This document shows positions 29,419 to 61,460 of a stretch of 64,000 nucleotides of DNA, one piece after another (within the stretch, counting starts at the first letter, position 1; each line of letters opens with the position of its first letter). Location of the stretch: the sequence record OQ990039; one strand, given 5' to 3'. The notes under the pieces were generated by a model. The model saw only the letters and a list, made by a program, of their open reading frames with translations, made no database searches and had not been told where the DNA came from. The position numbers were made by a program, and so were the translations under genes. This stretch comes from Escherichia phage SUT_E420.

Positions 29419-29424
29419 ATTATT

Positions 29425-29500: not shown

Positions 29501-29512
29501 ATAATTTTTATT

Positions 29513-29707: not shown

Positions 29708-29732
29708 ATTTTATTTCCTATTTAAGTTAATT

Positions 29733-30175: not shown

Positions 30176-30270
30176 TGGAGGTAGGTAAGGGGATCGAACC
30201 CTTACACCGTATCACTACGATCAACCGATTTCAAGTCGGAGTCCAGCGCCAGCCATTGGATTGACCTACC
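30176..30270 (-). tRNA. tRNA-Ser (anticodon TGA), class II
   Basis: 92 nt; perfect acceptor GGTAGGT/ACCTACC, anticodon loop CTTGAAA, long variable arm, CCA encoded. Confidence 0.75.
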
Positions 30271-30282
30271 ATATAAATTGTT

Positions 30283-30373
30283 TGGCGGAAGAGGAGAGAT
30301 TTGAACTCTCAAGCCGTTTTACCAGTCAGCCACTTTCCAAGCGGTTTTCGTCGCCAATTCGATTTGCTCTTCC
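30283..30373 (-). tRNA. tRNA-Ser (anticodon GGA), class II
   Basis: 88 nt; perfect acceptor GGAAGAG/CTCTTCC, anticodon loop TTGGAAA, T-arm GAGAG-TTCAAAT-CTCTC. Confidence 0.7.
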
Positions 30374-30485
30374 AATAATAAGATGATGCCTCTATCACAC
30401 CAGGCAGTTACGCCTCGCTGGGATTCGAACCCATTAAAACAGCTCAACCGAGATAGTAGGTTTAATTTACTCTGACCATCAAATT

Positions 30486-30562
30486 TGGTGCGTGACAAGG
30501 GATTCGAACCCTCAAAACCCGACTTCTAAGGACGGTATGTATGCCAATTCCATCAATCACGC
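30486..30562 (-). tRNA. tRNA, anticodon TAG (Leu-type anticodon on a 74-nt class I body)
   Basis: Acceptor GCGTGAT/GTCACGC, T-arm GAGGG-TTCGAAT-CCCTT; anticodon stem has one mismatch, so identity is tentative. Confidence 0.5.
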
Positions 30563-30567
30563 ATGTT

Positions 30568-30646
30568 TGGTGGAGAATAACGGAATCGAACCGTTCTGAT
30601 GTCCTCGGTGCAAGCGAGGTGTCCACTCCATGCAGACCCATTCCCC
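30568..30646 (-). tRNA. tRNA-Ala (anticodon TGC)
   Basis: Acceptor GGGGAAT/ATTCTCC, anticodon stem CCTCG/CGAGG with loop CTTGCAC, CCA encoded. Confidence 0.75.
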
Positions 30647-30884
30647 AAATTCTTTAGTTTACTAAGGCTATTAGCTCGGCGTAACTACAGCACCTTCGCT
30701 TCAAGCGGAAGGAACCGCGTCATCTCGCAAACCCGATACACTATTCAGTTGCCGCTGAACCTAGTGGACTAATCTAGAACTTCTCCCGAATCGTAGGGAT
30801 CGTGCTTTTTGGCAGCCAGTCCTAGGTCGAGCTAATACCTTAGTGAACTATGATGAGGATTTCTCCTCATCAATTTATATAAAT

Positions 30885-30913
30885 ATTATAACAAGAAATT
30901 AAGCATTAAGCAA
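30885..30913 (-). promoter_or_regulatory. T5-early-type promoter (-35 TTGCTT, -10 TATAAT) reading into tRNA cluster
   Basis: 17-bp spacer; no protein gene immediately downstream, only leader and tRNAs. Confidence 0.55.
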
Positions 30914-30931
30914 CTGCGTTTTTCTTGAAAT

Positions 30932-31010
30932 TGGTAGATCGCCTGGGACTCGAACCCAGAACCTTCCGATTAAAAGTCGGATGCTACTAAACCTATTGAG
31001 CTAGCGATCT
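30932..31010 (-). tRNA. tRNA-Lys (anticodon TTT)
   Basis: Perfect acceptor AGATCGC/GCGATCT, anticodon stem TCCGA/TCGGA with loop CTTTTAA, T-arm CTGGG-TTCGAGT-CCCAG. Confidence 0.8.
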
Positions 31011-31199
31011 ATTAGTAACCATTATACACTTCCTTAATAGAGTGGACTTTTAAGTAAGGGTGATTAGTACTAAACTCTACCATTACTTCATCCCAATTTT
31101 TACCATAATGAGCGAGTAAGGATTTTGATGTATTCTTACCTAACCGTTTGTCACTTACTACTAATCGAAATACTTTCATTTCGAAATCCTCTATTAAAA

Positions 31200-31277
31200 T
31201 GGAAGCGGGTGCAGGAATCGAACCTACCTCTTTCTAGCTTATGAGACTAGCGATCTCTACCAGAGATCTAACCCGCA
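31200..31277 (-). tRNA. tRNA, anticodon CAT (Met or Ile2)
   Basis: Anticodon stem CTAGT/GCTAG with loop CTCATAA; position 1-72 unpaired, which may indicate an initiator-like tRNA. Confidence 0.6.
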
Positions 31278-31283
31278 ATTGTT

Positions 31284-31359
31284 TGGTCAGTGCGGCAGGA
31301 CTCGAACCTGCGACCCGAAGCATCCAAGGCTCCCACGCTACCAACTGCGCTACGCACTG
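31284..31359 (-). tRNA. tRNA-Pro (anticodon TGG)
   Basis: Perfect acceptor CAGTGCG/CGCACTG, anticodon loop CTTGGAT, T-arm GCAGG-TTCGAGT-CCTGC. Confidence 0.75.
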
Positions 31360-31368
31360 TTAATTCTT

Positions 31369-31566
31369 TTATTGTGGAGGAATATTAATAATTCGTCCGT
31401 CTACACAATAAACGGTACTAGGAATTGTACTATATATGTAGAAATTCTTTATATTACTCTCTCCGCCACAGAAATTTTTAGCAAATTCATACTCTTTATT
31501 AATGGTTGAGTCAAGTTTAAAACAACCAGTAAGTAGGAATACAGACAGCAGTAAAACTTTTTTCAT
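31369..31566 (-). CDS. small lipoprotein
   Basis: 65 aa; signal peptide MKKVLLLSVFLLTGC with lipobox LTGC. Confidence 0.55.
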   Translation of the reverse strand: MKKVLLLSVFLLTGCFKLDSTINKEYEFAKNFCGGESNIKNFYIYSTIPSTVYCVDGRIINIPPQ

Positions 31567-31598
31567 TTTGCTTTCCTTCTCAACACTTTATAAGGTAT

Positions 31599-31627
31599 AT
31601 TATACAGAGAATTAAGCATAATAGCAA
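31599..31627 (-). promoter_or_regulatory. T5-early-type promoter (-35 TTGCTA, -10 TATAAT)
   Basis: 17-bp spacer; drives lipoprotein gene and downstream tRNAs. Confidence 0.6.
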
Positions 31628-32019
31628 ATGAATTTTTAATAAATTTACTTATTGTGTAGGCCACCTGGAGGCTACCAACCCCACGGCTGACAAAGAAGTT
31701 TGCGAGACCTCTCTTAAGTGCCAGAATAGACCCGCCGATCTATCGGAACCTACATAATAAGTAAACTTTATAGTGTCATTCTAGACAGGACTCGAACCTG
31801 TTATCACTTGTGCGGACTTACGAGAACCATTCTTTCACTCGAATCGAACGAGCTTCTGCCCTCGCCAAGCTGGTTTCCCCATCAACCACGCTAGAATGTT
31901 TGATTGTTTTCAGTGCAAGAGTCCGAGTCTTGGACACGACCGCTTCGCAAGTACATAGGCAGCTTATCATGAGTCAGCACTTCCGAATTGCTAGCTCCGT
32001 GTTCTGCACTGAAATTTTA

Positions 32020-32367
32020 TTAGTTTAACCGTAAAGTATTATCTACTTCACCCTTAATTGTTCGGCATTCTTCTGGGATTGCTGGTGTAGCCTTATATTC
32101 CCACCATTCAGAACCGTCGTATTCACCACGTTCTAACCAAGTTCCATCAGTAAACCACACGTTACCATAAAGCAATTGCCCACCGAAACCAGAATCATAT
32201 TTAAAGTCTAGATTATTTAGAAAATCTTCAATATCTTTTTCTGTATAACCTACGGGTAACACCCAAACTTCTTTGTCCCCATAATAACCGAATTCTATCT
32301 TAATACACTTAACTTCAGAATTAATATTCTTTAAGGCAAGTAACAATTCTTCTTTAGCATTAATCAT
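32020..32367 (-). CDS. hypothetical protein
   Basis: 115-aa ORF. Confidence 0.5.
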   Translation of the reverse strand: MINAKEELLLALKNINSEVKCIKIEFGYYGDKEVWVLPVGYTEKDIEDFLNNLDFKYDSGFGGQLLYGNVWFTDGTWLERGEYDGSEWWEYKATPAIPEECRTIKGEVDNTLRLN

Positions 32368-32393
32368 AGCATATTTCTCGTACTAGTTTAATT

Positions 32394-32470
32394 TGGCGCG
32401 ACCGATGGGATTTGAACCCACATTCCCTCCCGTGACAGGGGAGTACCATTACCAAGCCAGCCCCGGTCGC
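32394..32470 (-). tRNA. tRNA-Asp (anticodon GTC)
   Basis: Perfect acceptor GCGACCG/CGGTCGC, anticodon stem CTCCC/GGGAG with loop CTGTCAC, CCA encoded. Confidence 0.8.
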
Positions 32471-32479
32471 ATAATTCAT

Positions 32480-32665
32480 TTACTCAGCTTTGAGTTTTTC
32501 AATAGCTGCATTAAGTTCTTTAAGAAACTTTTTTCGTACATTAAGACGGTTGAGACTTACTAGTATATCATGTTTAAGTTCTTCGATGTATTTCTTCTCA
32601 ACTTCAATATTGTTGATAGTGCTATCACGATGAACTTCTAGCTGTGCAATTACATTCTTGGACAT
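32480..32665 (-). CDS. hypothetical coiled-coil protein
   Basis: 61-aa ORF. Confidence 0.4.
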   Translation of the reverse strand: MSKNVIAQLEVHRDSTINNIEVEKKYIEELKHDILVSLNRLNVRKKFLKELNAAIEKLKAE

Positions 32666-32767
32666 GCTTGTTTCCTCAGTTATTAATGAAAATGGTATCT
32701 GTGACTGAATTCGATGTCAGCAATGATAGCTGGTTGGCTACCGGTTTACTTAACTCTACACAGAATT

Positions 32768-32850
32768 TGGCGGGCCGTGTAGGATTCGAACCTACGTTGT
32801 CTTTCGACATGGATTAACAGTCCACCGCCAAACCGCTTGGCTAACGACCC
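32768..32850 (-). tRNA. tRNA-Asn (anticodon GTT), 80 nt with 13-nt variable region
   Basis: Acceptor GGGTCGT/ACGGCCC, D-stem GCCA/TGGC, anticodon loop CTGTTAA, T-arm GTAGG-TTCGAAT-CCTAC. Confidence 0.65.
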
Positions 32851-33002
32851 TAAATTTATATTGCTGACTAGGATTTTCACCTAGACGGAGTTAGCACCGT
32901 AGCGTGTAGCGGCATACCTCTCCAAACCGTGCCTCATCTTTCAATTACGGAGACAGTGTTCCTACGCGTGCCTGAATTGATTTAACAACTCTTTCAGCAA
33001 AT

Positions 33003-33078
33003 TGGACGACCGCATGAGATTTGAACTCACATAAAAAGGATTTGCAATCCTTCGCCTAAGCCATTCAGCCAACGGTCG
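33003..33078 (-). tRNA. tRNA-Cys (anticodon GCA)
   Basis: Acceptor CGACCGT/GCGGTCG, anticodon stem AAGGA/TCCTT with loop TTGCAAA, CCA encoded. Confidence 0.75.
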
Positions 33079-33126
33079 ATTTATCTTGTTCTGTCATGTT
33101 GCTTCTCCAGTTCAATTTATGTAATT

Positions 33127-33155
33127 ATTATACAGAACTTTTGGAAACTAAGCAA
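33127..33155 (-). promoter_or_regulatory. T5-early-type promoter (-35 TTGCTT, -10 TATAAT)
   Basis: 17-bp spacer; immediately upstream of tRNA-Cys. Confidence 0.6.
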
Positions 33156-33420
33156 CTACATTTTTTAAAAATTTGATGCCTTTCTTTTTCTTCTTATATT
33201 TCCACGTTAAGGGATTCTGTCGATTATGAACGCTTGAGATCTTTGTCTCGTCAAAGTTCTTCAATATCATGTAATCACAGGATAATTGTTCTAATGGAAT
33301 GTGATCACCGTCAAAAGCGTATACATAAGGCTGTTGACTAGCACGATAATGATAGACTTTGTTAATTCTACGTTTCAGCAACTTATCCGCGCAGTAAATA
33401 AAGAAGTTTTCAGGATGCAT
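33148..33420 (-). CDS. hypothetical protein
   Basis: ORF 33148-33435 trimmed to ATG at 33420 with GAGGGAG ribosome-binding site; C-terminus overlaps promoter. Confidence 0.45.
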   Translation of the reverse strand: MHPENFFIYCADKLLKRRINKVYHYRASQQPYVYAFDGDHIPLEQLSCDYMILKNFDETKISSVHNRQNPLTWKYKKKKKGIKFLKNVVA

Positions 33421-33437
33421 CAGCAGCTCCCTCAATT

Positions 33438-33512
33438 TGGTGCACCCTGTTCGTATCGAACGAACCTCTCAAGCTCTTCAGGCAAGCGCTAATCCATCTC
33501 AGCTAAAGGTGC
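33438..33512 (-). tRNA. tRNA, probable Phe (anticodon GAA)
   Basis: Acceptor GCACCTT/AGGGTGC, T-arm GTTCG-TTCGATA-CGAAC; anticodon loop CTGAAGA if stem tolerates two mismatches. Confidence 0.5.
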
Positions 33513-33518
33513 AAATTT

Positions 33519-33595
33519 TGGCAAACCTACTAGGACTCGAACCTAGACCGTACGGTTTTGGAGACCGACATGCTGTCCAGTAACACTCTAGGAAT
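33519..33595 (-). tRNA. tRNA-Trp (anticodon CCA)
   Basis: Anticodon stem CGGT/ACCG with loop CTCCAAA; perfect T-arm CTAGG-TTCGAGT-CCTAG; acceptor has two U-U mismatches. Confidence 0.55.
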
Positions 33596-33603
33596 GCAGG
33601 AAT

Positions 33604-33680
33604 TGGCGTCCTGTGCGGGGATCGAACCCGCAAATCCTACCTTGAAAGGGTAGTGACTTTACCAGTTTGTCTAACAGGAC
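33604..33680 (-). tRNA. tRNA-Glu (anticodon TTC)
   Basis: Perfect acceptor GTCCTGT/ACAGGAC, anticodon stem CTACC/GGTAG with loop CTTTCAA, T-arm GCGGG-TTCGATC-CCCGC. Confidence 0.8.
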
Positions 33681-33687
33681 TTAAATT

Positions 33688-33778
33688 TGGTGTTGGATGA
33701 TGGAGTCGAACCACCCGAGACCCTTCCGAGTCGGCAGATTTACAGTCTGCTTCGCTACCTCTACGATACTAATCCAAC
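33688..33778 (-). tRNA. tRNA-Tyr (anticodon GTA), class II
   Basis: 88 nt; perfect acceptor GTTGGAT/ATCCAAC, anticodon stem GCAGA/TCTGC with loop CTGTAAA, long variable arm. Confidence 0.8.
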
Positions 33779-33842
33779 ATATTTAAAAGTATTCAAATAC
33801 TAGTTTAAACACTTTTAGATATGTTTCCAAATTAGATAACTA

Positions 33843-33870
33843 TTATATCAAGTTTTATGGCACTGAGCAA
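33843..33870 (-). promoter_or_regulatory. candidate promoter (-35 TTGCTC, 16 bp, -10 TATAAT) upstream of tRNA-Tyr
   Basis: Overlaps hairpin CACTGAGCAAG/CTTGCTCAGTG that follows the upstream gene. Confidence 0.45.
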
Positions 33871-33906
33871 GTCAAATTTTAAAGAACTTGCTCAGTGCTG
33901 TATTAG

Positions 33907-34182
33907 TTAGTCGAACTTAGGAGCGACAGTTAAGGAGAATGGAAGTTCGAAAACTTCTTCGCCCTCATCACTAACAGTAATTACACGACCTTTAAGTTCA
34001 GACATTGAAATATCAATATCAGCTTTTGCATCTGGAGCCATGCCAGCTTCAATACATTTAGCTTTAACTTCCGGCAGAAGTTCTACATCGTAGAAATAAA
34101 GCCATTCAATCTCACCTTCCCAGCCTTCCCAGGATTTACAGATTGCACTTTCAATACCAGTTGCTATAACACGATTTTGCAT
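33907..34182 (-). CDS. hypothetical protein
   Basis: 91-aa ORF. Confidence 0.5.
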   Translation of the reverse strand: MQNRVIATGIESAICKSWEGWEGEIEWLYFYDVELLPEVKAKCIEAGMAPDAKADIDISMSELKGRVITVSDEGEEVFELPFSLTVAPKFD

Positions 34183-34212
34183 TCGTTAACTCCTTCATCA
34201 ATTTATATAACT

Positions 34213-34242
34213 ATTATACCAGAAATTTAAAGCAAAAGGCAA
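34213..34242 (-). promoter_or_regulatory. T5-early-type promoter (-35 TTGCCT, 18 bp, -10 TATAAT)
   Basis: Conserved leader TCATCAATTTATATAA on plus strand. Confidence 0.5.
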
Positions 34243-34272
34243 GTACATTTTTAAAAATTCTGTTTGGAGGAG

Positions 34273-34479
34273 CTAAACTCCAGATTCTTCAGCTAAGTCT
34301 AGGCTAATAAGAGATATAGCCATAATTGCTGCTCCGTGTTCTCTTTCTCCTGTCTCTTTAGCTAGGGTTATAATATCAAGAAATTGCTTATGAAAGTCTG
34401 CAACCTCTTGAGTCATACCTGCCTCAGCAATCATGCCTTTAAGCATGAAACGTTGTGCGGTAATTTCGGGATTAGCCAT
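34273..34479 (-). CDS. hypothetical protein
   Basis: 68-aa ORF. Confidence 0.45.
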   Translation of the reverse strand: MANPEITAQRFMLKGMIAEAGMTQEVADFHKQFLDIITLAKETGEREHGAAIMAISLISLDLAEESGV

Positions 34480-34654
34480 GTTGTTTCTCCAGTTTCATGT
34501 TTAATAGTCTACAAATAAAATCAATGTCTTCATCTGTGCCTAGATCTCTATCTTCAAGAGTTGCCTTGAAGTTTTTCGTCAATTCCATGAGGATAACTTC
34601 TCTAGAACGACGTGTTGGCGGAGGTGGATGTCTATACATCTTATTTCCTTAAGT

Positions 34655-34731
34655 TGGTAGGGGTGGTGGGATTCGAACCCACAAAACCTGAATTTTAAGT
34701 CCAGTACCTATACCAATTCGATTACACCCCC
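34655..34731 (-). tRNA. tRNA, anticodon TAA (Leu-type anticodon on a 74-nt class I body)
   Basis: Acceptor GGGGGTG/CACCCCT, anticodon stem CTGGA/TTCAG with loop CTTAAAA, T-arm GTGGG-TTCGAAT-CCCAC. Confidence 0.55.
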
Positions 34732-34832
34732 ATGTAATCAGTTTATTAGTTGATACATATTATAGCCTAGTGAAAATCCTACTACTAGTCCCACAAACCA
34801 ACCAATATAATAATCTTTTAGTTTCACAGGTA

Positions 34833-35018
34833 TTATCCTCGTTCAATATCTAGGGAAACACCGCAGTTAGGATTAATACCTGTACCGTTGCAATTTGAAC
34901 AAATCCAGATATTGCAAAAAGTATCTCCTGCTTCTGCATCAGAACTTTCACCAATTCCCCTACACTCAGGGCAGGCACATTCTTCTAGCTCTTGCTTGAG
35001 TTCTTGAAACTTGGACAT
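34833..35018 (-). CDS. Cys-rich small protein (zinc-binding-like)
   Basis: 61 aa; CACPECRG and CSNCNG motifs. Confidence 0.5.
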   Translation of the reverse strand: MSKFQELKQELEECACPECRGIGESSDAEAGDTFCNIWICSNCNGTGINPNCGVSLDIERG

Positions 35019-35027
35019 ATAGTCTCC

Positions 35028-35216
35028 TTAGTCAATTACTTTTGAGGCTTCAAGGGAGTCGATATAGTATACGTTTTCTACCATAATCATATAATCTGCC
35101 ACTTTATCCATAGCTTGGGCCTCAGAGGTAGCTCTGGCTAACCTATATCCTTTTTTATATTCATCCGGGTATTCTCTATCTTGAATAAATACAACATAAA
35201 CTATGTATAATTCCAC
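35028..35216 (-). CDS. hypothetical protein
   Basis: ORF 35028-35363 trimmed: N-terminal part overlaps two tRNA genes; GTG start after AGGGG ribosome-binding site. Confidence 0.4.
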   Translation of the reverse strand: MELYIVYVVFIQDREYPDEYKKGYRLARATSEAQAMDKVADYMIMVENVYYIDSLEASKVID

Positions 35217-35236
35217 TTGTAATCCCCTAATTAAGT

Positions 35237-35314
35237 TGGTGGCTCCCCGAGGATTCGAACCTACGTACCTTCCGGTTATGAGCCGGGTGCTCATACCATA
35301 TGAGCTTGAGAACC
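35237..35314 (-). tRNA. tRNA, anticodon CAT (Met or Ile2)
   Basis: Acceptor GGTTCTC/GGGAGCC with G-U pairs, D-stem GCTC/GAGC, anticodon loop CTCATAA. Confidence 0.55.
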
Positions 35315-35320
35315 AGAATT

Positions 35321-35409
35321 TGGCGGAAGAAGTGGGAATCGAACCCACAAGGCTATATTTCAAACCGACAGATTAGCAATCTGCTGCAATACCGTTATGC
35401 TATTCTTCC
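35321..35409 (-). tRNA. tRNA-Ser (anticodon GCT), class II
   Basis: 86 nt; perfect acceptor GGAAGAA/TTCTTCC, anticodon stem GCAGA/TCTGT with loop TTGCTAA, T-arm GTGGG-TTCGATT-CCCAC. Confidence 0.75.
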
Positions 35410-35430
35410 GAATTTATAAGATATATTATA

Positions 35431-35949
35431 TTAGAAATTTAGCTTCATAGCAAGAAAATTTTTCAAGTTTTCGGTAGACATCTCATCCACATCTACGGGA
35501 GAAACAAAGCCGTTTAATTTTCTAGCAAATTTTTCACCCGCAGGATCGTTGTCTCCGACAGCTACCAATTTAAAAGGTAATAATTTCAGTTGCTTTAATA
35601 ACGCTTTTCCTGGAGAAGAACCTAACATTGCCAGGGCTGGATAACCAGCGTTATGTAGCGCAACTGCCTTAAATACAGATTCAGCGATCAATACTACTTT
35701 TTCATCTCCATTGAGAGTTTCTAGTCCCCATACACACTGGGTAGTAGAATAAGTAAAATATTTAGCTTCAAAGGGACACTTACCATGACCTTTTGGAGCA
35801 GAAGGATTATACGTCTGATAGCCTCGCAACATCCCGGAGAAGTCATACAACGGGACTGTTAGCCATCCTTCCGGACTTAACCAGCAATGATATTTATCTG
35901 TATCAAATCCTCTGGATAAGAGGTGCTGTGTTAGCTCATCAACATTCAT
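35431..35949 (-). CDS. Toprim-domain protein
   Basis: ORF 35431-36000 trimmed to MNVDEL start with GAGAGG ribosome-binding site; VVLIAESVFKAVAL and GDNDPAG resemble the Toprim E and DxD motifs. Confidence 0.55.
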   Translation of the reverse strand: MNVDELTQHLLSRGFDTDKYHCWLSPEGWLTVPLYDFSGMLRGYQTYNPSAPKGHGKCPFEAKYFTYSTTQCVWGLETLNGDEKVVLIAESVFKAVALHNAGYPALAMLGSSPGKALLKQLKLLPFKLVAVGDNDPAGEKFARKLNGFVSPVDVDEMSTENLKNFLAMKLNF

Positions 35950-35979
35950 ATTTGGTTCCTCTCTCAAATTTATAGATAT

Positions 35980-36008
35980 ATTATACAGAGAATTTAGCAT
36001 TCAAGCAA
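35980..36008 (-). promoter_or_regulatory. T5-early-type promoter (-35 TTGCTT, -10 TATAAT)
   Basis: 17-bp spacer, conserved leader. Confidence 0.6.
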
Positions 36009-36124
36009 TCAAATTTTTTAACTTTTTAGAGGAAAATCATAGGGCACTTAAGGGTAGCAGATAAGTGGGGAGGACCAAAATTTGTGACCCCACTAAAAAT
36101 CCGGGGGCAATTTTTAAAGACCCC

Positions 36125-36153
36125 TTGACATTTTCGCTGGGGTAGTGTAAAGT
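36125..36153 (+). promoter_or_regulatory. sigma70-type promoter (-35 TTGACA, 17 bp, -10 TAAAGT)
   Basis: Consensus -35, starts the only plus-strand operon inside the minus-strand block. Confidence 0.55.
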
Positions 36154-36215
36154 ATATGTTATGGATGAGTGATCAAAGAGACACACATTTTCTATATACT
36201 AGGAGGTGTCAAAAT

Positions 36216-37205
36216 ATGACAGAAGAAGTAGCTAAGAGTCCTGAGACCGTCGCTAGCGTTGCAGCAGAACTGCACCGTCACGAGGAATCAGATAAGAAAA
36301 AGTGGGAGAAGGTCAGAGCCTACGAAGAAAAACATCGTGAACACGATGATGAAGAAGAAGATGACGATGATGAACATTGTCATAAATATGGAAAACATAA
36401 AATGCAAGAACCAGTAAACGTATTCACTAGTGGCTTCCCTGGCCTACTGGGTGGTTACCCAGCAAACGCAGGTGCTTTCGGTGGTGAAGGTATGGGACTA
36501 TTCGGAGCTATCCTAATCGGTGCTCTATTAACCGGCGGATTCGGTGGTTTCGGTGGATTCGGTGGACGTGGTGTAGTTGGTGAAGGTACCGCAGTTGATG
36601 CAGTACTTCAGAACCAAGATACCGCTAGTATTCTAGCAGCTATCAACACTACTCGTACAGAGGCTAACCAGGGTACTGGAGCTGTTTTAAGCGCAGTTAA
36701 CAATGGTTTTAGCCAGACAACCCAAAACCAGAGCCGTGATACTCAGTCTGTACTAACTACGATCTACGGTACAGGTGCTAATCTGTCTAATCAGATCTGC
36801 CAGGAAACTCGCAACGTTATTCAGGGTCAGTTCGATCTTTCTCGCCAGATTGATCAATCTTTCGCAGCTAACCAGATAGCTCGTGCACAAGATAAGTTTG
36901 ATTCTGCACAGATCGCTTTCCAGCAGACTTTACAAACTAATAACCAGTTTGCCGCTGTTCAGGCTCAGATGTGTGCTAACCAGAACTCTCTGGAACGTCA
37001 GATCGCTGAATGTTGCTGTGAACTTCAGACTGCGATCGCTGGTGTAACTACTGCGCGTATCCAGGATGAGTTAGACGCATGTCGCCTACGTGAAGCAATC
37101 GCTGCGGGTAGCGGTGCTAACGGTCAGGTAATTAATCAAATCGCTTTAAGTCTTGGTGCTATCACTCAGACTCTGGCTGGTCTGCAGGCTAAACTGCCGG
37201 CTTAA
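36216..37205 (+). CDS. glycine-zipper membrane protein with acidic N-terminus and Q/N/T-rich C-terminal half
   Basis: ORF 36156-37205 trimmed to MTEEVAK start after AGGAGG; DDEEEDDDDEH run, GxxxG-rich hydrophobic GMGLFGAILIGALLTGGFGGFGGFGG, low-complexity tail, C-terminal CCC. Confidence 0.55.
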   Translation: MTEEVAKSPETVASVAAELHRHEESDKKKWEKVRAYEEKHREHDDEEEDDDDEHCHKYGKHKMQEPVNVFTSGFPGLLGGYPANAGAFGGEGMGLFGAILIGALLTGGFGGFGGFGGRGVVGEGTAVDAVLQNQDTASILAAINTTRTEANQGTGAVLSAVNNGFSQTTQNQSRDTQSVLTTIYGTGANLSNQICQETRNVIQGQFDLSRQIDQSFAANQIARAQDKFDSAQIAFQQTLQTNNQFAAVQAQMCANQNSLERQIAECCCELQTAIAGVTTARIQDELDACRLREAIAAGSGANGQVINQIALSLGAITQTLAGLQAKLPA

Positions 37206-37226
37206 TATTAAGGGGAGGAGCCCATT

Positions 37227-37643
37227 ATGAGTAAATATGGTTTTGTAAATAACGGACTTAATCAAAGTATGGGCTCCCAGCAGCCCATTCCGGGTCTGGA
37301 TAACCCCTACTTACAACAGTTGCAACAGCGTTTAGCAGAAGCGCAACAGATGCAGCAACAACTCCAGCAAAACCCTGGAAGTGTGAGTCCTATGCAAATG
37401 ATGCAGCAAATGAGCGGGCAGTCGCAAATGCCTCAACAAATGCAGCAACAGGTGCCTCAGCAGCAAGTTCAGCAACAAACCCAACAACCGCAGGTTTCTG
37501 CGGAAGGACAGGCAGTACTAGCCCTTTTCGAAGACTTCGCAAAGACAGAGGATGGGAAACAGCTTGTATCACTTATGGGTAAGTTTAATAGCTTCTGCCA
37601 AAGCCAAGTTGCAAAAGCTCAAAATGGGGGTAGTAACTCCTAA
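37227..37643 (+). CDS. glutamine-rich low-complexity protein
   Basis: 138 aa, about one third Gln (QQLQQ, QQMQQQ repeats); GGAGG ribosome-binding site. Confidence 0.5.
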   Translation: MSKYGFVNNGLNQSMGSQQPIPGLDNPYLQQLQQRLAEAQQMQQQLQQNPGSVSPMQMMQQMSGQSQMPQQMQQQVPQQQVQQQTQQPQVSAEGQAVLALFEDFAKTEDGKQLVSLMGKFNSFCQSQVAKAQNGGSNS

Positions 37644-37652
37644 GGAGGAAAT

Positions 37653-37847
37653 ATGTGTTGCAGAAAATCTGTTTCGTGCTGCCCAGTGCCTGTAGCACGT
37701 TGTTGCTCTCCAGCAATGTTTACGCAAATACCGGCGTTCAATCCCTTTGCCTTTAAGCCTACTCTTATCCTGCCCCCTAGAGTAGATTTTCAGTCAAGAT
37801 TGGCCTCCCGTATGGGTGGTTGCTGTACACCGAGAGTATGGTTCTAA
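37653..37847 (+). CDS. Cys-rich small protein
   Basis: 64 aa with MCC, SCC, RCC and GGCC Cys pairs; AGGAGG ribosome-binding site. Confidence 0.45.
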   Translation: MCCRKSVSCCPVPVARCCSPAMFTQIPAFNPFAFKPTLILPPRVDFQSRLASRMGGCCTPRVWF

Positions 37848-37859
37848 ACCAAAAACAAA

Positions 37860-37894
37860 AGCCCCTGCCGAAAGGTAAGGGGCTTTTTCTTTTG
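37860..37894 (+). terminator. rho-independent terminator of plus-strand cassette
   Basis: Stem AGCCCCT/AGGGGCT followed by TTTTTCTTTTG; second copy after the N-gap is an artefact. Confidence 0.8.
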
Positions 37895-38071
37895 CCTTAA
37901 ATACAGAAAANNNNNNNNNNNNNNNNNNNNNNNNNNNNNNNNNNNNNNNNNNNNNNNNNNNNNNNNNNNNNNNNNNNNNNNNNNNNNNNNNNNNNNNNNN
38001 NNNNNNNNNNGAGTATGGTTCTAAACCAAAAACAAAAGCCCCTGCCGAAAGGTAAGGGGCTTTTTCTTTTG

Positions 38072-38115
38072 CCTTAAATACAGAAAAGCCCGCGCTCTCG
38101 TAGGAAACGCGGGCT
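38072..38115 (-). terminator. rho-independent terminator after SPFH gene
   Basis: Stem AGCCCGCG/CGCGGGCT, then TTTTCTGTATTT on the minus strand; convergent with the plus-strand terminator. Confidence 0.7.
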
Positions 38116-38139
38116 TGGTTCGAAGATTACGTGTAACTA

Positions 38140-39087
38140 TTACTTGTTACGCATATCCATGATCATTTGACCATCGTAGCCAGTACCTACCACAGTCTGA
38201 GGTACACCACCTTGATACTTCTGAGCACGGATCATTTCAACTTCCAGTTGTTTCCAACGAATCATTTCAGGAGTAATGGTACGTTGCAATGCGGCGTTAG
38301 CTTCAGCTTCTTTCTTAGCTGCGTACAGTTTAGCATCTGCGTCACGTTCATTAGCAATAGCTTGGTTGTTACGAGCTTCACGATCTGCTTCTGCTTGTTT
38401 AACTTTTTGCTGTGCTTCCTGTTCAACGCGAGCAAGTTCAGCTTTCGCAGCATTAACTTGCTCTTCACGAACTTTGGTATTCTGTACCTGTTCCATGATT
38501 ACTGGCGGCAAGGTAATATCCTGAAGGAATACCTGCTTAACTGTGTAACCATATGGGCGCGCATACTCTTCAACTTCCTGTTGAATTGCAGTTTGCAATT
38601 GAGCCTGAATTTTAGCATCAAATAAATCTTGTGCTTTAGGTACAGACTTACCAAACTCACGAATAGTAGACAGTAATTTTTCAGTTACATACTTGTCTAG
38701 TGCCTGATCCTGAGTACCTGCGTTAATACGGTTAATCGGTGCTTTAGAACCATCAAACTGCAACATAACAGTCAGGTCAACAGTGGATTTAAACTTATCC
38801 TGGCTAGGAACCTGAAGTTTATCTAATTTTACAGCAATATCTTTTGTACTAAAAGTATCGAAAGATGCAAACGGGTTTACAAGATGGAAGCCCGGCAATA
38901 CTGGATTAGGGTCTACTTTACCCAGGAATGTTTGGGTTTTAACCGTACCATCAGAAACAATAGTATATGAATTAAAAGCTAGGATTAAACCTGCTAAACC
39001 AACTACAGCACCAATACCCCAACGTTTAATAGTACGAATTACTTTCTGCTCAGAAGTCAGTTCTTTCATATTTTTAGTAGCAAACAT
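38140..39087 (-). CDS. SPFH/band-7 (stomatin/prohibitin/HflK-C-like) membrane protein
   Basis: 315 aa; N-terminal TM WGIGAVVGLAGLILAF, band-7-like core, long Ala/Gln/Glu-rich coiled coil. Confidence 0.65.
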   Translation of the reverse strand: MFATKNMKELTSEQKVIRTIKRWGIGAVVGLAGLILAFNSYTIVSDGTVKTQTFLGKVDPNPVLPGFHLVNPFASFDTFSTKDIAVKLDKLQVPSQDKFKSTVDLTVMLQFDGSKAPINRINAGTQDQALDKYVTEKLLSTIREFGKSVPKAQDLFDAKIQAQLQTAIQQEVEEYARPYGYTVKQVFLQDITLPPVIMEQVQNTKVREEQVNAAKAELARVEQEAQQKVKQAEADREARNNQAIANERDADAKLYAAKKEAEANAALQRTITPEMIRWKQLEVEMIRAQKYQGGVPQTVVGTGYDGQMIMDMRNK

Positions 39088-39121
39088 ATATTTCCTTTGT
39101 TTTAGTTACAGTTAATAAAAT

Positions 39122-39196
39122 TGGCCGAGGTGACAGGATTCGAACCTGCATAAAGGAATTTAGAAGACTCCTGCCTCTCCCTTAGACTACACCCCG
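39122..39196 (-). tRNA. tRNA-Arg (anticodon TCT)
   Basis: Acceptor CGGGGTG/CACCTCG, anticodon stem GGAGT/ATTCC with loop CTTCTAA, T-arm GCAGG-TTCGAAT-CCTGT, CCA encoded. Confidence 0.7.
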
Positions 39197-56102: not shown

Positions 56103-56292
56103 GGGTTTAAACGCCGCTTTGGAAAACGCATTAATGCAGCACTGGGAAACTGGCTATAAGGATGGTGTTGAATCCTGCGCTACTATGCTAGAAGTTATTG
56201 CTAATACCTTAATGGAGAAAGGCAATAAAGAATTAGCTGAGCTATTAGACAGTATTGGGCAAAACTTCAGAGAACAGGTGAAAAATGCGTAG
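56071..56292 (+). CDS. hypothetical protein
   Basis: 73-aa ORF. Confidence 0.45.
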   Translation: MAFSKPMLPDKGLNAALENALMQHWETGYKDGVESCATMLEVIANTLMEKGNKELAELLDSIGQNFREQVKNA

Positions 56293-57100
56293 ATTAATTG
56301 TTATTAGCGGTGCAGGTTTGAGTGTTGAAAGTGGTGTACGAGCTTTTCGTACTGATACTGCTAGTGGTAAAGCATTGTGGGATGATTATGATCTAGAAGA
56401 AGTATGTAATATTCATGCCTTTCGTGGTAATTTTTATCATAAAACCCATATGTTTTACAACAAGCGTCGTGAAGAGCTAAAAACTGTTGAACCCAATCTT
56501 GCGCATTTGCGTATCGGTGAATGGTATAAACAATATCCAGGTCAAGTAGTAAACTTGACTACCAACGTTGATGACCTTATTGAGCGTTCTGGCGTTCCAC
56601 ATAATGACATTCTACACATTCATGGATATTTAAAAGAGGTTGTTGTAGCTGATAGCTACAATAGTAGCAATAAACGGATTATTGATGTAGGATACAATTC
56701 TATTGATCCAGATGATTATAAATGGGTTAAACCTAATGTAATCTTCTTTGGAGAGCATGCTCCAGCATATGCGGAGATGTACAATGTTTTTGATGGTATT
56801 ACCAGTCAAGATATGATCATTGTGGTTGGTTGCTCTAACCAAGTAATTAACTTCTACTGGGAATTATTTCCTGTTCTTAATTTGACTGCTGCCAAGCTAA
56901 TGGTTGTTAACTACTATGATAGTGCCCTAGCGGCGGAACCGAGCTATCAAGGTATGACTCGTAGTGAGATGTACCAGCTGGAAGAACGCGGTATCCCTTA
57001 CTGGGGTAAAGGTGCGGTAGATGCTTTCAGTGATCCTGATTTTATTGCTCGTGTAGAAGCTCATTTAGGGGGTAGACCTTATGTGTCAGGAAATAAGTAA
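56285..57100 (+). CDS. Sir2-family NAD-dependent protein (deacylase/ADP-ribosyltransferase fold)
   Basis: 271 aa; GAGLSVESGVRAFR (NAD-binding GAG..SG.P.FR), TTNVDDL and HIHG motifs; no zinc-ribbon Cys pairs seen. Confidence 0.7.
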   Translation: MRRLIVISGAGLSVESGVRAFRTDTASGKALWDDYDLEEVCNIHAFRGNFYHKTHMFYNKRREELKTVEPNLAHLRIGEWYKQYPGQVVNLTTNVDDLIERSGVPHNDILHIHGYLKEVVVADSYNSSNKRIIDVGYNSIDPDDYKWVKPNVIFFGEHAPAYAEMYNVFDGITSQDMIIVVGCSNQVINFYWELFPVLNLTAAKLMVVNYYDSALAAEPSYQGMTRSEMYQLEERGIPYWGKGAVDAFSDPDFIARVEAHLGGRPYVSGNK

Positions 57101-57595: not shown

Positions 57596-58024
57596 ATGTT
57601 CAATAATGTATTCTCTAAAGAAGCTAACCCAATTTTGGTTAACTTTTGGCGTACTCTTCCAGCTAGCCTGTATAATGAGGCTATTAACTCTTTGAAAATA
57701 TGGTGTGAGAATAACGAAATCTACTTTGCTTTTAAAGATGATATTGATGAAGCCCCCTGTATTGGTTTAATTGTTCAGGTAGAGGAGGGTCTTGAAGAGA
57801 TTGTCGGCTGGAAAGAGTTAGATGAAATGGGCTTAGTTTTTGCGTTAAACTATAAGCTGTTTATGCCTGCTAAGCATCGCCTCGTTGTTAACTATAAAAC
57901 TAGTGAATCTCCTGGTTTTCAAGTTAATGAACGTTACGGTTGGTCTTACTCACCAGAAGAAGTGAATGATGGTATCCAAAAACTTCGCCGTTTCGGGTAT
58001 ATGATCCCAGGTTTAACTGCTTAA
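57596..58024 (+). CDS. hypothetical protein, paralog A
   Basis: 142 aa; similar to next ORF (PCIG core, ELD..E..MGL, FALNYKLF, C-terminal PGL). Confidence 0.5.
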   Translation: MFNNVFSKEANPILVNFWRTLPASLYNEAINSLKIWCENNEIYFAFKDDIDEAPCIGLIVQVEEGLEEIVGWKELDEMGLVFALNYKLFMPAKHRLVVNYKTSESPGFQVNERYGWSYSPEEVNDGIQKLRRFGYMIPGLTA

Positions 58025-58033
58025 GGAGGCAGA

Positions 58034-58423
58034 ATGGAACAAGTATATTGGCGTCAGATTGACCCTAGTTTGGTGAAACGTGCGGAGAAGCTGCTACAAC
58101 GTTGGTTGGGGGTAAGACAAGCCTCCTTCACTTTTCCTGAGCAGCAAATAGATGATCCATGCATTGGCGTTTTCCTGTCTGGATACGCCAGGGAATGGGA
58201 ACTGGATTGGAATGAGTTGTCTGCTATGGGTTTAATTGTTGCCCTAAATTTCTCTTTGTTCCATCCACGTGGTTTTGCCATATGTCGTGTGCCGGATGAT
58301 GGTTGTTCGCCCCATCTTTTACAGGTGGAAAATGATATTTGGGAGTACACTCCAGATATTCTCAAAGAAGCTAAAGAACAATTAAACCGTGTTGGGATAT
58401 ATGTTCCGGGATTAAATGACTAA
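58034..58423 (+). CDS. hypothetical protein, paralog B
   Basis: 129 aa; tandem duplicate of preceding ORF. Confidence 0.5.
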   Translation: MEQVYWRQIDPSLVKRAEKLLQRWLGVRQASFTFPEQQIDDPCIGVFLSGYAREWELDWNELSAMGLIVALNFSLFHPRGFAICRVPDDGCSPHLLQVENDIWEYTPDILKEAKEQLNRVGIYVPGLND

Positions 58424-58449
58424 TGATTTTTATTAGCTGAACTCTGATT

Positions 58450-58475
58450 ACCGAGTCATTTTGGCTCGGTTTTAT
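58450..58475 (+). terminator. rho-independent terminator
   Basis: Stem ACCGAG/CTCGGT followed by TTTTA. Confidence 0.5.
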
Positions 58476-58517
58476 CCGTACTCAAGACCAATGATAGCAC
58501 CATCCGGAAAATTTTAC

Positions 58518-58546
58518 TTGCAGGATGCTCAAAATCTTGATATAAT
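58518..58546 (+). promoter_or_regulatory. sigma70-type promoter (-35 TTGCAG, 17 bp, -10 TATAAT)
   Basis: Followed by about 500 nt without a convincing ORF before the helicase-like gene. Confidence 0.55.
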
Positions 58547-59045
58547 ATTTATATTGAATTGAGAGATATTAGTAAAAATTGATTTTGCTAATTTTTCTTG
58601 TTTACAATCCGCGATACGGAACAGTTAGGCTGCCCAATTAAGGGTTGTTTTAACTGTTACGTGTTAGTTTTTAAACAAATAGTTAATAGAATACTTAGCG
58701 ATCTGCGTCCCGTAGGAACCCTGGTAAGGCCTCGAAGCAACCTAGATAGAGGTGGTTGTGAAGTGAGACGGGAGGAGTGAAAAACTCCGAGACGTGATTC
58801 TGTAAGTTATATTGCATCTAGTATGAGCTAGTACATGAAGCATTAGGTGAGCAAATCTGGCTTAGCGGCCATCCTCAAGGATTTGTGCGGTATAGCAAAG
58901 CAGCAGCGCAGCGTGAAAGTGGAAGTTGCCACCCCACTTCAGTATTTGCGATTAATTTGTTGAGAAATTGACAGTAACAGTTGTTCTATTCTTTCTGAAT
59001 AGTCCTAAAGAAAACTTATTTCATTTCCAACACAGGAGTATTGTT

Positions 59046-61460
59046 GTGTTCTCAATCCTACAAGGTCATGCAGGATTTCATCGCGATTTAGCCACAGGCA
59101 ATTGGCGAGAAGTTAAAGCAGAAGACTATCTTTTTGCTAAAAGATTTTCCTCAAAGCATCCTGAAGGTAAACCAGCTTCAATGCCCTTCAAGTTTGATGT
59201 AATTGATGAAGTTGATCCTCAAACCCTAGTAGAAATGCTTCCTCTTATGAGACGTTTAACGTCTGACCCTCATATCGTTGCGGTACGAGGTCGATGTCTT
59301 ACACCTAAAAATAATGTGCGACGTAAGAAGGGCAACTTTAATGTATCTAACCCAAGTCATATAATTGCAATGGACGTGGATGGTATTGTAGATACAGGTG
59401 GTTGCAACAAGTTTGATCTTGTTGGCATGGCTCGACATATTATTAGAATGTTAAATAGTATTAGTGAGGATATGTTTCCTCTTGATGCAGGGTTTATCGC
59501 TCATGCATCGTCTTCGGCTGGGCTNNNNNNNNNNNNNNNNNNNNNNNNNNNNNNNNNNNNNNNNNNNNNNNNNNNNNNNNNNNNNNNNNNNNNNNNNNNN
59601 NNNNNNNNNNNNNNNNNNNNNNNNATGTTAAATAGTATTAGTGAGGATATGTTTCCTCTTGATGCAGGGTTTATCGCTCATGCATCGTCTTCGGCTGGGC
59701 TAAAACCAGGTATCCGAATGCACTTAATACTAGAATCTAATGTTAAAGTAACTCAGGGTCAAATCAAATTCTTATTTACATCTATCAACGAAAGTAGTAG
59801 ACAAAAGTATGGCTTTGATATTGCCGACTTAGCTTATTACTCTTCCGTACAGCTCCACTATTTTGCAGATCCGTTATTTACCGATGGTATAGTAGATCCG
59901 TTTAAAGCGGAGGGTGCTTCACGTCTGGTATTTGTTAAGGGTTCTAAAGTAAATTTACCCAATAATCTGGTTGACTATGAAACAACTAGAGGTGAGTTTA
60001 AGGAGGAGTTTTACTCTTTACTCGATCAAATTAAAGGTAAAAAAGCTGCCTCTGATAAAGTAGAGGAAACTATCAGCGAACTAGAAGAAGCTGAGGATGG
60101 AGTGTATCTACGTATCATACCTAAACTCTATCACAGAGCCTTAGAGGATGGTGTTGATTTTGCATGGCTAGAAAAAGAAATCCGTCCAGCCTTATCAGAA
60201 TATATTGCAACTAAAGATAACAGTCGCAATATTCAAGATTACTTTAATAACGGTCGTAAACAGGCTCTGAAAGCATTTGTTAATAATTCTAAACGTGATA
60301 TACCTGATGTTTTAAAGGGTATTCCACTTAAAAAGCTAGAAACTAATTCTCTAGAAACTGATAACTTCTTGAAATTAAATACTGTACCACCAGAAGGTTA
60401 TATGACTTTTGTAAAAGCAAGTCTAGGTACAGGTAAAACTACAGCGGTTGTGCGTTGGTTAGATTCAGGAGTTATTAAAGGTAATTTCTTAGCAATTACC
60501 AATACTAGAGCACTGGTATCTTCAAATGCCAAGAAATTTAGTGCAGGACAATATGATAAGTCTGTAGATATGCTTAATTTTAAGCGGGGTGCTATTGACC
60601 GTATGTCCACAACTATTCACTCTTTGCATAAATTCAAGAGTTTTATTGGTCAAATTGATGCAATCTTTATCGATGAATGTGATGCAGTAATGAATGACCT
60701 ATTATTCGCCCCGGTTGTTAAACAACGTCGCGAGTGTATTCAGGTTCTTCGGGATATTCTTGCAACTGCAAAAATCATTATATTATCTGATGGGGATATT
60801 AGTGCAGAAACAATTGAAGCATATGGTTCTTTGATTGAGTTTGATAAACCAGTAGCATTTTATAACCATCACCGTAAAATGCTATCAAAAGCTCATGCTT
60901 ATGAGTTCCCGGATGAATCCAGTATTTGGGTTGCACTTCAGACTTCTCTAGAGATGGGTGAGAAATCTATCCTAGTATCTGACTGTGGGCCGGATGAACT
61001 GAATGAGAAGGGTATGGCATTGCGTCGTAATACGGGTGCGTTAGTTAAGGAAATCCACTCAAANNNNNNNNNNNNNNNNNNNNNNNNNNNNNNNNNNNNN
61101 NNNNNNNNNNNNNNNNNNNNNNNNNNNNNNNNNNNNNNNNNNNNNNNNNNNNNNNNNNNNNNNGATATTAAGAAGTGTTCAAATGTCACTATCAAACCAT
61201 TCATAGAAGCTCTGAAAGGTAAGAAGAAAGATTTCTTCCTTAAAACAGGTCAGAGTGCTAACCCAAAATATGCCAGAATGTATCTTGGTATGATGGGTAT
61301 TGGTAAGGATATGAACACTGAAAATATTGTAGACTGGTACAGAACCTATTGTAAAATCGAGTGTATGCCAATCCCCTATAAGTTTATGACTGATGAGGAG
61401 AAACATATGCATGATGAAGCAATGGCAGAGCTAGGTGCTAGAAATGACAGTGAAGAATAA
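59046..61460 (+). CDS. P-loop NTPase, helicase or replication-initiator-like
   Basis: ORF 58968-61460 trimmed to GTG after ACAGGAG; Walker A SLGTGKTT and Walker B IFIDECDAV; contains two N-gaps so length is inflated. Confidence 0.55.
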   Translation: MFSILQGHAGFHRDLATGNWREVKAEDYLFAKRFSSKHPEGKPASMPFKFDVIDEVDPQTLVEMLPLMRRLTSDPHIVAVRGRCLTPKNNVRRKKGNFNVSNPSHIIAMDVDGIVDTGGCNKFDLVGMARHIIRMLNSISEDMFPLDAGFIAHASSSAGXXXXXXXXXXXXXXXXXXXXXXXXXXXXXXXXXXMLNSISEDMFPLDAGFIAHASSSAGLKPGIRMHLILESNVKVTQGQIKFLFTSINESSRQKYGFDIADLAYYSSVQLHYFADPLFTDGIVDPFKAEGASRLVFVKGSKVNLPNNLVDYETTRGEFKEEFYSLLDQIKGKKAASDKVEETISELEEAEDGVYLRIIPKLYHRALEDGVDFAWLEKEIRPALSEYIATKDNSRNIQDYFNNGRKQALKAFVNNSKRDIPDVLKGIPLKKLETNSLETDNFLKLNTVPPEGYMTFVKASLGTGKTTAVVRWLDSGVIKGNFLAITNTRALVSSNAKKFSAGQYDKSVDMLNFKRGAIDRMSTTIHSLHKFKSFIGQIDAIFIDECDAVMNDLLFAPVVKQRRECIQVLRDILATAKIIILSDGDISAETIEAYGSLIEFDKPVAFYNHHRKMLSKAHAYEFPDESSIWVALQTSLEMGEKSILVSDCGPDELNEKGMALRRNTGALVKEIHSXXXXXXXXXXXXXXXXXXXXXXXXXXXXXXXXXXDIKKCSNVTIKPFIEALKGKKKDFFLKTGQSANPKYARMYLGMMGIGKDMNTENIVDWYRTYCKIECMPIPYKFMTDEEKHMHDEAMAELGARNDSEE

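Follow-up and report, generated by a model that had tools for sequence, protein, structure and literature searches.

Evidence for a large structured RNA ahead of the replication initiator gene of T5-like phages

Introduction

Structured leaders and non-coding RNAs are a known kind of element among phages. In the lambda N leader and at the R sites of the T7 early region, cutting of a stem changes the translation or the stability of the message, and in herpes simplex virus the origin-binding protein UL9 recognises a structured single-stranded form of its origin. The present analysis concerns positions 58547-59045 of a 64,000-nucleotide (nt) stretch of Escherichia phage SUT_E420 (record OQ990039; the whole stretch is termed the window), a leader lying between a strong promoter and obp, the gene of a UL9-like replication origin-binding protein (OBP). 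Judging from the searches described below, this leader would match none of the described RNA families. An earlier note, made from the letters alone, had suggested that it is not spacer but a riboregulator, a small RNA or a structured 5' leader. The locus is of interest as T5 is a classical model phage whose replication origin and initiator control nevertheless remain unexplained, the origin being unmapped (PMC3632103, PMC10055335).

One fold in two alleles

The window belongs to a T5-like phage (Tequintavirus), and its leader region is 100% identical to that of Escherichia phage SUT_E1520 and 97-99% identical to that of many Tequintavirus genomes. In an alignment of seven phages, the promoter is invariant, and the upstream terminator, the first ~110 nt and the last ~90 nt of the leader are almost so, while the middle (~58660-58975) occurs in two very different versions. 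The 35 distinct T5-like versions compared split cleanly into type A, which the window carries, and type B, carried by T5 itself and Epseptimavirus; identity between the two cores is 43-46% over MAFFT columns and 57-59% by pairwise global alignment, and the distance from a conserved 5' box to the ribosome-binding site is held at 414-418 nt in all 35. RNAalifold, applied to A and to B separately, returned the same architecture, helix for helix, and when single sequences are folded at minimum free energy (MFE), 21-29 of 100 core pairs are common to A and B, compared with 3-5 (maximum 15-24) once the B core is shuffled. These comparisons support the folding of ~58615-59002 into one large RNA domain of ~370 nt, with the following predicted parts.

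58553-58614, + strand: AU-rich 5' segment, predicted to be unstructured, with a TTGAGAGA box and UGCUAA at 58586-58591
58615-58650, + strand: conserved 5' box TACGGAACAGTTAGGCTGCCC (58615-58635) and hairpin P1a (58627-58635 with 58642-58650)
58651-58695 (5' strand) with 58941-58983 (3' strand), + strand: closing helix P2, 39 bp
58698-58708 (5' strand, GCG..CUGCGU) with 58906-58914 (3' strand, GCGCAGCGU), + strand: helix P3
58709-58796, + strand: lineage-variable inner subdomain, comprising P3a (58709-58772), the hairpin GGAGU-GAAAA-ACUCC (58774-58788) and the box GAGACGUG (58789-58796)
58801-58902, + strand: universal core, a three-way junction of P4 (58801-58813 with 58889-58902), P5 (58815-58849) and P6 (58851-58886)
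58862-58867, + strand: invariant apical loop of P6, UUAGCG, within GGCUUAGCGGCC (58859-58870)
58917-58939, + strand: hairpin P7, AAGUGG/CCACUU, with loop AAGUUGCCACC
58986-59002, + strand: hairpin P8, CUAUUC-UUUCU-GAAUAG, present in both RNAalifold runs

The AU-rich 5' block does not differ between the two types (100% identity). The 5' box is invariant in the 35 T5-like versions, kept in Klebsiella and Pectobacterium phages and absent from the leaders of Providencia and Proteus phages, and the adjoining hairpin P1a appeared in both RNAalifold runs. P2 consists of 10+11+11+7 bp, broken only by single-nucleotide bulges and one small internal loop, and thus reaches the ~20 bp or more of double-stranded RNA that an RNase III stem has; a long equivalent stem is also present in T5 type B and in the Pectobacterium phages My1 and DU_PP_V. 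Within the universal core, CUUAGCGG is common to the seven enterobacterial lineages, its surrounding stems covarying, and it occurs once only in the window. A P7 loop resembling GUUGCCA(C/U)C (GUGACCACC in Klebsiella), on a covarying stem, was recognised by eye in My1, DU_PP_V and Klebsiella phages. The UGCUAA of the 5' segment is complementary to the P6 hexaloop and recurs in the leaders of My1, DU_PP_V and Proteus phages; that the two might pair is ventured only as an idea. P8 has no U-run behind it and the terminator scan was negative there, so it is not a terminator; as its stem is invariant in T5-like phages, it yields no covariation evidence.

Covariation and folding statistics

Within each allele, substitutions respect the predicted pairs almost without exception. 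In type B (20 sequences, 136 pairs) 99.8% of the alignment cells are paired, with 6 compensatory double changes against 0-1 in slid controls, 9 one-sided changes compatible with wobble pairing, no fixed disruption and 4 broken cells, each confined to a single sequence. In type A (14 distinct sequences, 140 pairs) 1955 of 1960 cells are paired and 5 broken, with 6 compensatory double changes and 12 one-sided, wobble-compatible ones. The double changes fall in P3 (relative positions 91/296 and 93/294 in type A, 90/293 in type B), P3a, the GAAAA hairpin, P4, P5, P6 and P7 (307/323 in type A, 304/323 in type B); those of the inner subdomain within type A include 98/155 and 160/175. P2 carries only wobble-compatible single changes within each type (14 one-sided substitutions, A and B together), and between types its base pair 58656/58978 reads G-C in A, G-U in T5 and A-U in the other type B phages.

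A sequence-only MAFFT alignment across genera gave a poor structural register, and covariance models were used in its place. The first, built from type A alone over P4/P5/P6 (58799-58904), gave as top match a full-length, + strand, syntenic hit at every enterobacterial lineage locus, with rough E-values of 2e-6 for Klebsiella, 2e-5 for Pectobacterium phage DU_PP_V, 0.005-0.01 for Providencia, 0.05 for T5 type B, 0.13 for My1 and 0.2 for Proteus; the two Vibrio loci gave no match. In the resulting alignment 94.2% of cells are paired, as against 62.7% in shuffles and 37-43% in slid controls, 32 of the 34 pairs change on both sides (18.7 and 13-19 in the respective controls) and the covariation score is 0.73 (0.20 and ~0.10), counts that are inflated by the alignment having been fitted to the model but that exceed the controls by a large margin. 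The second model, built from type A over the inner subdomain (58707-58798), found only two Pectobacterium phages (E 1e-8 and 1e-4) and had no match in T5 type B, Klebsiella, Providencia or Proteus phages, and the inner subdomain is accordingly regarded as lineage-variable and replaced in most lineages.

The closing helix was assessed by a duplex test in which the two windows, one after the 5' box and one upstream of the start, were set in advance from homology anchors and compared with 300 shuffles. The z-score was -7.0 in Seafire and -4.9 in both T5 and My1; DU_PP_V scored -4.2, and two versions of type A gave -4.0 and -3.3. Values of -4 to -7 were thus reached in 4 of 5 lineages, with 0 of 300 shuffles attaining the observed value in the significant ones; in Klebsiella the score of -1.7 was not significant. 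The RNAduplex energy of whole segments was discarded as uninformative, long segments always giving large interior-loop duplexes against shuffles. The + strand folds 22-27 kcal/mol better than the - strand (-218 against -163 kcal/mol in Proteus phage PM135), and 16-18% of the pairs are G-U; this asymmetry and the G-U share point to RNA, although single-stranded DNA of the + strand strictly also fits.

The view of the earlier note that the region is a structured RNA rather than spacer is thus borne out by the same fold in two alleles, 12 compensatory double changes, recovery of the syntenic, covarying element in five further genera by the type A model and the + strand bias, and the structure and covariation analysis it had proposed supports a selected + strand fold. 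The element is at least part of the leader of obp.

Promoter, initiation region and coding potential

The leader is embedded in the following signals and genes.

58450-58475, + strand: intrinsic terminator of the upstream DUF7415 gene pair, stem ACCGAGTCA/TGGCTCGGT followed by a T-run, read from the sequence
58505-58546, + strand: early sigma-70 promoter with A/T tract, from the T5 record feature and a relaxed scan
59025-59052, + strand: obp translation initiation region, with UUCC (59025-59028) opposite the Shine-Dalgarno (SD) GGAG (59035-59038), GTG (59046-59048) and UGUUCU (59047-59052)
59046-61460, + strand: obp, T5.108 / D2 bipolar helicase, UL9-like origin-binding protein (Pfam and PDB matches, PMC3632103)

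The promoter that the earlier note had placed at 58518-58546 is present there and is annotated in the T5 record: its -35 element TTGCAG (58518-58523) is separated by a 17-nt spacer from an extended -10 element TGaTATAAT (58538-58546), with an A/T tract upstream. A simple consensus scan missed it because the -35 element matches at only 3 of 6 positions, and a relaxed scan recovered it. The terminator is annotated at the homologous place in the T5 and Lindwurm records, and the T5 reference record shows there the same succession of terminator, promoter and a ~470-nt gap before T5.108. Judged by the distance from the -10 element, and by the T5 promoter PN25 which we take as a guide to the start site, transcription would begin near 58553 and give a leader of ~493 nt. 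A second promoter-like site, TTGATT-18-TACAAT, lies within the conserved 5' segment at 58579-58608; transcripts from it, if any, would begin at ~58615, the first position of the 5' box.

At the other end, GTG 59046 is by these signs the true start of obp, as had been proposed: an AGGAG precedes it by 7 nt, and every lineage has at the homologous position an ATG or GTG with TT(T/C) behind it. In T5-like phages the prediction has the start codon base-paired (p 0.8-0.9), for the most part within a local hairpin once the coding sequence is included. Read from the sequence, GGAACA of the 5' box is complementary to UGUUCU at 59047-59052, in the first obp codons. A long-range helix P1 (58617-58625 with 59040-59048) was set aside as not robust once the coding sequence was added; in the ensembles predicted for My1 and DU_PP_V, pairing of the 5' box region with the SD and initiation region is seen. 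A direct repeat, TGTTTACAATCC (58599-58610) and TGTTCTCAATCC (59047-59058), identical at 10 of 12 positions, brackets the structured domain. Its first copy opens a TTG open reading frame (ORF), 'MFTI...', that mimics the obp start 'MFSI...'; the repeat, which was not seen in Pectobacterium phages, could be due to chance or be the trace of a duplication from acquisition of the domain. No terminator-like site was detected between the RNA and obp in either of the two regions scanned, the window and Proteus PM135, which makes the RNA at least part of the obp leader.

The gene that had been called helicase-like is T5.108, annotated as 'replication origin binding protein', the product of which is the biochemically studied D2 bipolar helicase (PMC3632103). 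It is of UL9 type, with the Pfam domain Herpes_ori_bp at amino acids 389-533 and PDB matches to solved UL9-type origin-binding proteins.

As the earlier note had claimed, 58547-59045 holds no credible ORF: only mechanical frames of 33, 60 and 38 amino acids (none above 60) are present, none is conserved and none has a PHROG match. The 60-amino-acid ORF is shortened to 21 codons in type B and has no SD upstream; such frames are annotated in a few phage records, as in the three 'hypothetical proteins' of phage SCF. The conserved ORF that the earlier note had named as refuting its view did not emerge: in a six-frame comparison of ten lineages no frame-specific conservation was found, similarity being equal in all frames and confined to places where the nucleotides themselves are conserved, and the divergent core has no conserved translation. 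The Rfam search that had been recommended (Rfam 15, 4227 models) gave for 58300-59300 best matches of E >=1, far below gathering scores, and no relevant match at six distant loci, and ARAGORN detected no tRNA or tmRNA in the leader. A lambda-type nut site was considered and rejected, as the boxB-like GGAGU-GAAAA-ACUCC loop is not conserved in DU_PP_V, My1 or Klebsiella phages and no boxA was seen by eye. No description of the leader was found in the literature searched; subscription journals, with for example the 2005 T5 genome paper, could hold one.

The description 'GC-balanced' held only in part: the core 58700-58950 has 42-53% GC, compared with ~38% for the window, and shows positive GC skew, its RNA being G-rich and purine-rich, whereas the first ~150 nt and the last ~90 nt of 58547-59045 have 25-35% GC. 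Cumulative GC skew over the window reaches its minimum ~5 kb before the leader, at ~52-54 kb, the point at which the genes change orientation.

Distribution and co-inheritance with the initiator

Every Demerecviridae lineage sampled presents a terminator, a strong promoter, a gap of 470-760 nt without a gene and then obp, the exception being one annotated ORF of <60 amino acids in each of two Vibrio records; since the layout recurs in all of them, the gap is not due to chance. The core is common to the enterobacterial lineages, namely the phages of Klebsiella, Pectobacterium, Providencia and Proteus and the T5-like phages. The Vibrio phages River4 (L041, 662-1371) and 234P1 (L042, 773-1500) have an equally long gap that shows neither homology with the enterobacterial RNA nor an excess of folding energy. 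Scans of metagenomes and bacterial genomes with a specific two-box pattern returned only more phage copies of type A and of Klebsiella type, the matches in bacterial genomes being attributable to chance; a gapped pattern, GAGAMGTG..CTTAGCGG, proved non-specific in viral contigs, and the loci it returned (L056-L168) were discarded as junk. In the sampled loci the RNA is always directly upstream of obp and nowhere else.

The boundary between allele and flank is sharp. Between Lindwurm (type A) and T5 (type B) the flanks are 86-100% identical and the core 32-53%, and the flanks on both sides are homogenised between the types. The first 1260 nt of obp are allele-specific like the core, whereas nt 1500-2500 are not, and core type and obp N-terminal type are co-inherited in 26 of 26 loci, as one allelic module. 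The N-terminal half of OBP (amino acids 1-390) has no Pfam or PDB relative, even by profile search, and a large protein search with this domain returned only 2 fragments. It contains D110-x-D112, H167 and D202, invariant from T5 to the Vibrio phages, residues that resemble what we take to be motifs I-III of archaeo-eukaryotic primases; an AlphaFold model of the domain was discarded at a pLDDT of 42.

Several loci depart from the common layout. Proteus phage PM135 (L169) has two perfect 12/12 sigma-70 promoters, at 405-433 and 1135-1164, which bracket a non-coding region of ~690 nt, and a second CUUAGC-containing sequence at 1115-1122. Three insertions occur near the promoter. In Gostya9 (L004) the unstructured 5' segment is lengthened by 97 nt at 587-683, an insert that TTTTTCTT flanks; oselot (L007) has TTTTGCTAA in three copies at 559-589; and in S132 (L009) a gene for an HNH endonuclease, together with a promoter of its own, occupies 446-1000, after the terminator and before the leader promoter. 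This gene was at first placed inside the leader and is actually inserted upstream of the promoter. The structured domain is intact in all three.

As for the surroundings in the window, two tandem paralogous genes of the DUF7415 family (57596-58024 and 58034-58423) lie directly upstream, with a Sir2-like gene at 56285-57100, and 21 tRNA genes detected by ARAGORN cluster on the - strand at 27669-39196, the known T5 tRNA region. The window contains nine runs of exactly 100 N (784-883, 5573-5672, 15521-15620, 19696-19795, 25388-25487, 27095-27194, 37911-38010, 59525-59624 and 61064-61163), two of which interrupt obp; as the 77 nt preceding the run at 59525-59624 recur after it, the obp frame in the window carries an assembly or masking artefact.

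Control of initiator synthesis and alternative explanations

The reading that we favour, though tentatively, is that the leader acts in cis as a post-transcriptional control element for the replication initiator. Transcription from the early promoter at 58518-58546 would run through to obp and produce an mRNA with a ~493-nt leader, in which the closing helix P2 would place the 5' box beside the start-codon region and, being a long double-stranded stem, could be cut by host RNase III. The junction and the UUAGCG loop may together form a specific protein-binding site, for which the most plausible occupant would be the variable N-terminal half of the initiator itself, so that its binding might affect translation of its own message in an autogenous manner. 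Four features lead us to favour this reading: the length of P2, which is that of a typical RNase III target; the complementarity of the 5' box to the opening codons of obp; the invariance of a loop carried on a covarying scaffold, which resembles a protein-binding site; and the inheritance of the core together with the N-terminal half of the initiator, which hints that this is the protein bound. The constant position of the element between a strong promoter and obp likewise supports placement in cis. Several observations weigh against it. Thermodynamic support is weak in Klebsiella phages, and the long-range P1 with the start codon is devoid of covariation support and meets a competing local hairpin in T5-like phages. 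At ~370 nt the domain is much larger than known phage translational operators, and in Proteus phages the second perfect promoter, 37 nt upstream of obp, would allow the gene to be expressed without the RNA. Co-inheritance with obp could, moreover, be plain physical linkage.

The Proteus promoter between RNA and gene speaks at the same time for a stand-alone non-coding RNA, excised by cleavage in the P2 stem much as ribosomal RNA is released from its precursors and acting in trans on a host or phage target, for instance to aid takeover of the host or to serve as a decoy for a defence system. A compact domain flanked by a closing stem, an invariant apical loop that could serve recognition, and a core that is hypervariable inside nearly identical flanks, as an arms race predicts, are all consistent with this explanation, which we nonetheless consider unlikely, as neither a terminator nor a defined 3' end turned up in the two regions scanned (the window and Proteus PM135), the RNA is found only directly upstream of obp and it has no known target. 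Of similarly low probability is the explanation that the region forms all or part of the T5 replication origin, activated by transcription, with the folded transcript acting like ColE1 RNA II or, in a variant, with the displaced non-template strand of the DNA, identical to it in sequence, as the structure that the initiator recognises or uses as primer. The region adjoins the initiator gene of a phage with an unmapped origin (PMC3632103, PMC10055335), its 5' flank is AT-rich, its RNA is purine-rich with positive GC skew, and covariation cannot separate RNA from + strand single-stranded DNA. The core, furthermore, co-varies with the N-terminal half of OBP and not with the helicase half, and in lambdoid phages the specificity pairs of origin and initiator behave likewise. 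Against this stand the absence from the leader of iterons or tandem repeats, since only two-copy repeats of 8-12 nt at chance level were found and no initiator-site repeat in at least three copies (the AACAGTT/AACTGTT copies change in concert, like paired RNA strands), the absence of an antisense promoter on the - strand of 57800-59400, and a cumulative GC-skew minimum at ~52-54 kb and not at the leader. The G-U pairs, 16-18% of the total, and the wobble-mediated substitutions are typical of RNA, and one study reported dominant unidirectional replication from one genome end (PMC10055335). The more specific proposal, that the folded transcript or displaced strand is the T5 origin recognition element or primer and that the UL9-like initiator reads it with its variable N-terminal half, appears a shade less probable still; if the origin explanation were true, the two leader alleles would represent two origin-initiator specificity types.

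The long structured leader with its possible element occluding SD and start codon would also suit a riboswitch through which a metabolite, for instance a nucleotide, would gate the expression of obp. This is very improbable, however, as no Rfam riboswitch matched even at E up to 10, no terminator-type expression platform is present, and junction and loop nucleotides are poorly conserved between lineages: only the UUAGCG loop and the 5' box (the latter not in Providencia or Proteus) are conserved across genera, and one entire subdomain has been replaced in type B and in the phages of Klebsiella, Providencia and Proteus. Hardly credible is a non-functional spacer or recombination junk that folds as any AU-rich 430-nt sequence would. 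Shuffled sequences do often give many long-range pairs, 2-11% of them reaching the count observed in MFE folds, so that significance per lineage is modest, as are the MFE z-scores (0.1 to -4.1), but 12 compensatory doubles and 21 wobble-compatible singles with almost no disruptions, 32 of 34 pairs covarying across genera, synteny kept across genera and a length held at 414-418 nt in both alleles all argue against it. Least credible is that the region encodes one or more small proteins, for which the mechanical ORFs annotated in a few records would speak, and against which stand the lack of frame-specific conservation and of PHROG matches, and a 60-amino-acid frame that is cut in type B and devoid of an SD.

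The analysis defines a well-supported structured RNA of ~370 nt, with a universal core and an invariant loop, which has a fixed place before the initiator gene in those T5-family phages of enteric bacteria that were sampled and exists as two interchangeable alleles travelling with the N-terminal half of the initiator. It provides a concrete, mutable element with which to ask how initiator synthesis is set, whether the initiator recognises RNA and where replication starts; it also allows spurious 'hypothetical protein' calls to be removed from many phage records, and could seed a new RNA family.

Comparison with known systems

For control of initiator synthesis in cis, the RNase III-processed leaders are the natural comparison. 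Like the lambda N leader and the T7 R sites, the obp leader would place a long imperfect double-stranded stem in an early transcript of the host polymerase, upstream of a regulatory or replication gene; it differs from them in that its 39-bp stem closes a conserved domain of ~290 nt with junctions and an invariant loop, not a simple hairpin, and in that it has no sequence or Rfam relationship to them. The T4 operators, comprising the gene 32 pseudoknot, the gene 43 hairpin and the RegA sites, resemble it in that the mRNA of a replication protein itself carries an RNA structure, and putative binding by the encoded protein would fit the co-inheritance of core and OBP N-terminal half. The T4 operators, however, are <50 nt long and overlap the initiation region, whereas the leader domain extends over ~370 nt and ends ~45 nt before the start codon.

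Two systems bear on an origin function. With ColE1 RNA II the leader shares a strong promoter ~500 nt upstream and a structured, untranslated transcript whose fold is conserved despite sequence divergence, as is seen in primers of the RNA II type, but it has no antisense promoter of the RNA I type, and T5 possesses its own primase and helicases. With oriS/oriS* of herpes simplex virus and UL9 it shares the helicase domain of the encoded protein and the position of a structured element next to the gene; only the helicase core of OBP matches, not the DNA-binding domain of UL9, and neither UL9-box repeats nor a palindrome centred on an AT spacer was found in the leader. GOLLD and ROOL, as orphan RNAs of phages and prophages, of several hundred nucleotides and supported by covariation, are comparable in kind, but the present RNA is smaller, has no Rfam match to either, and is fixed at one syntenic leader position, restricted to the Demerecviridae of enterobacteria.

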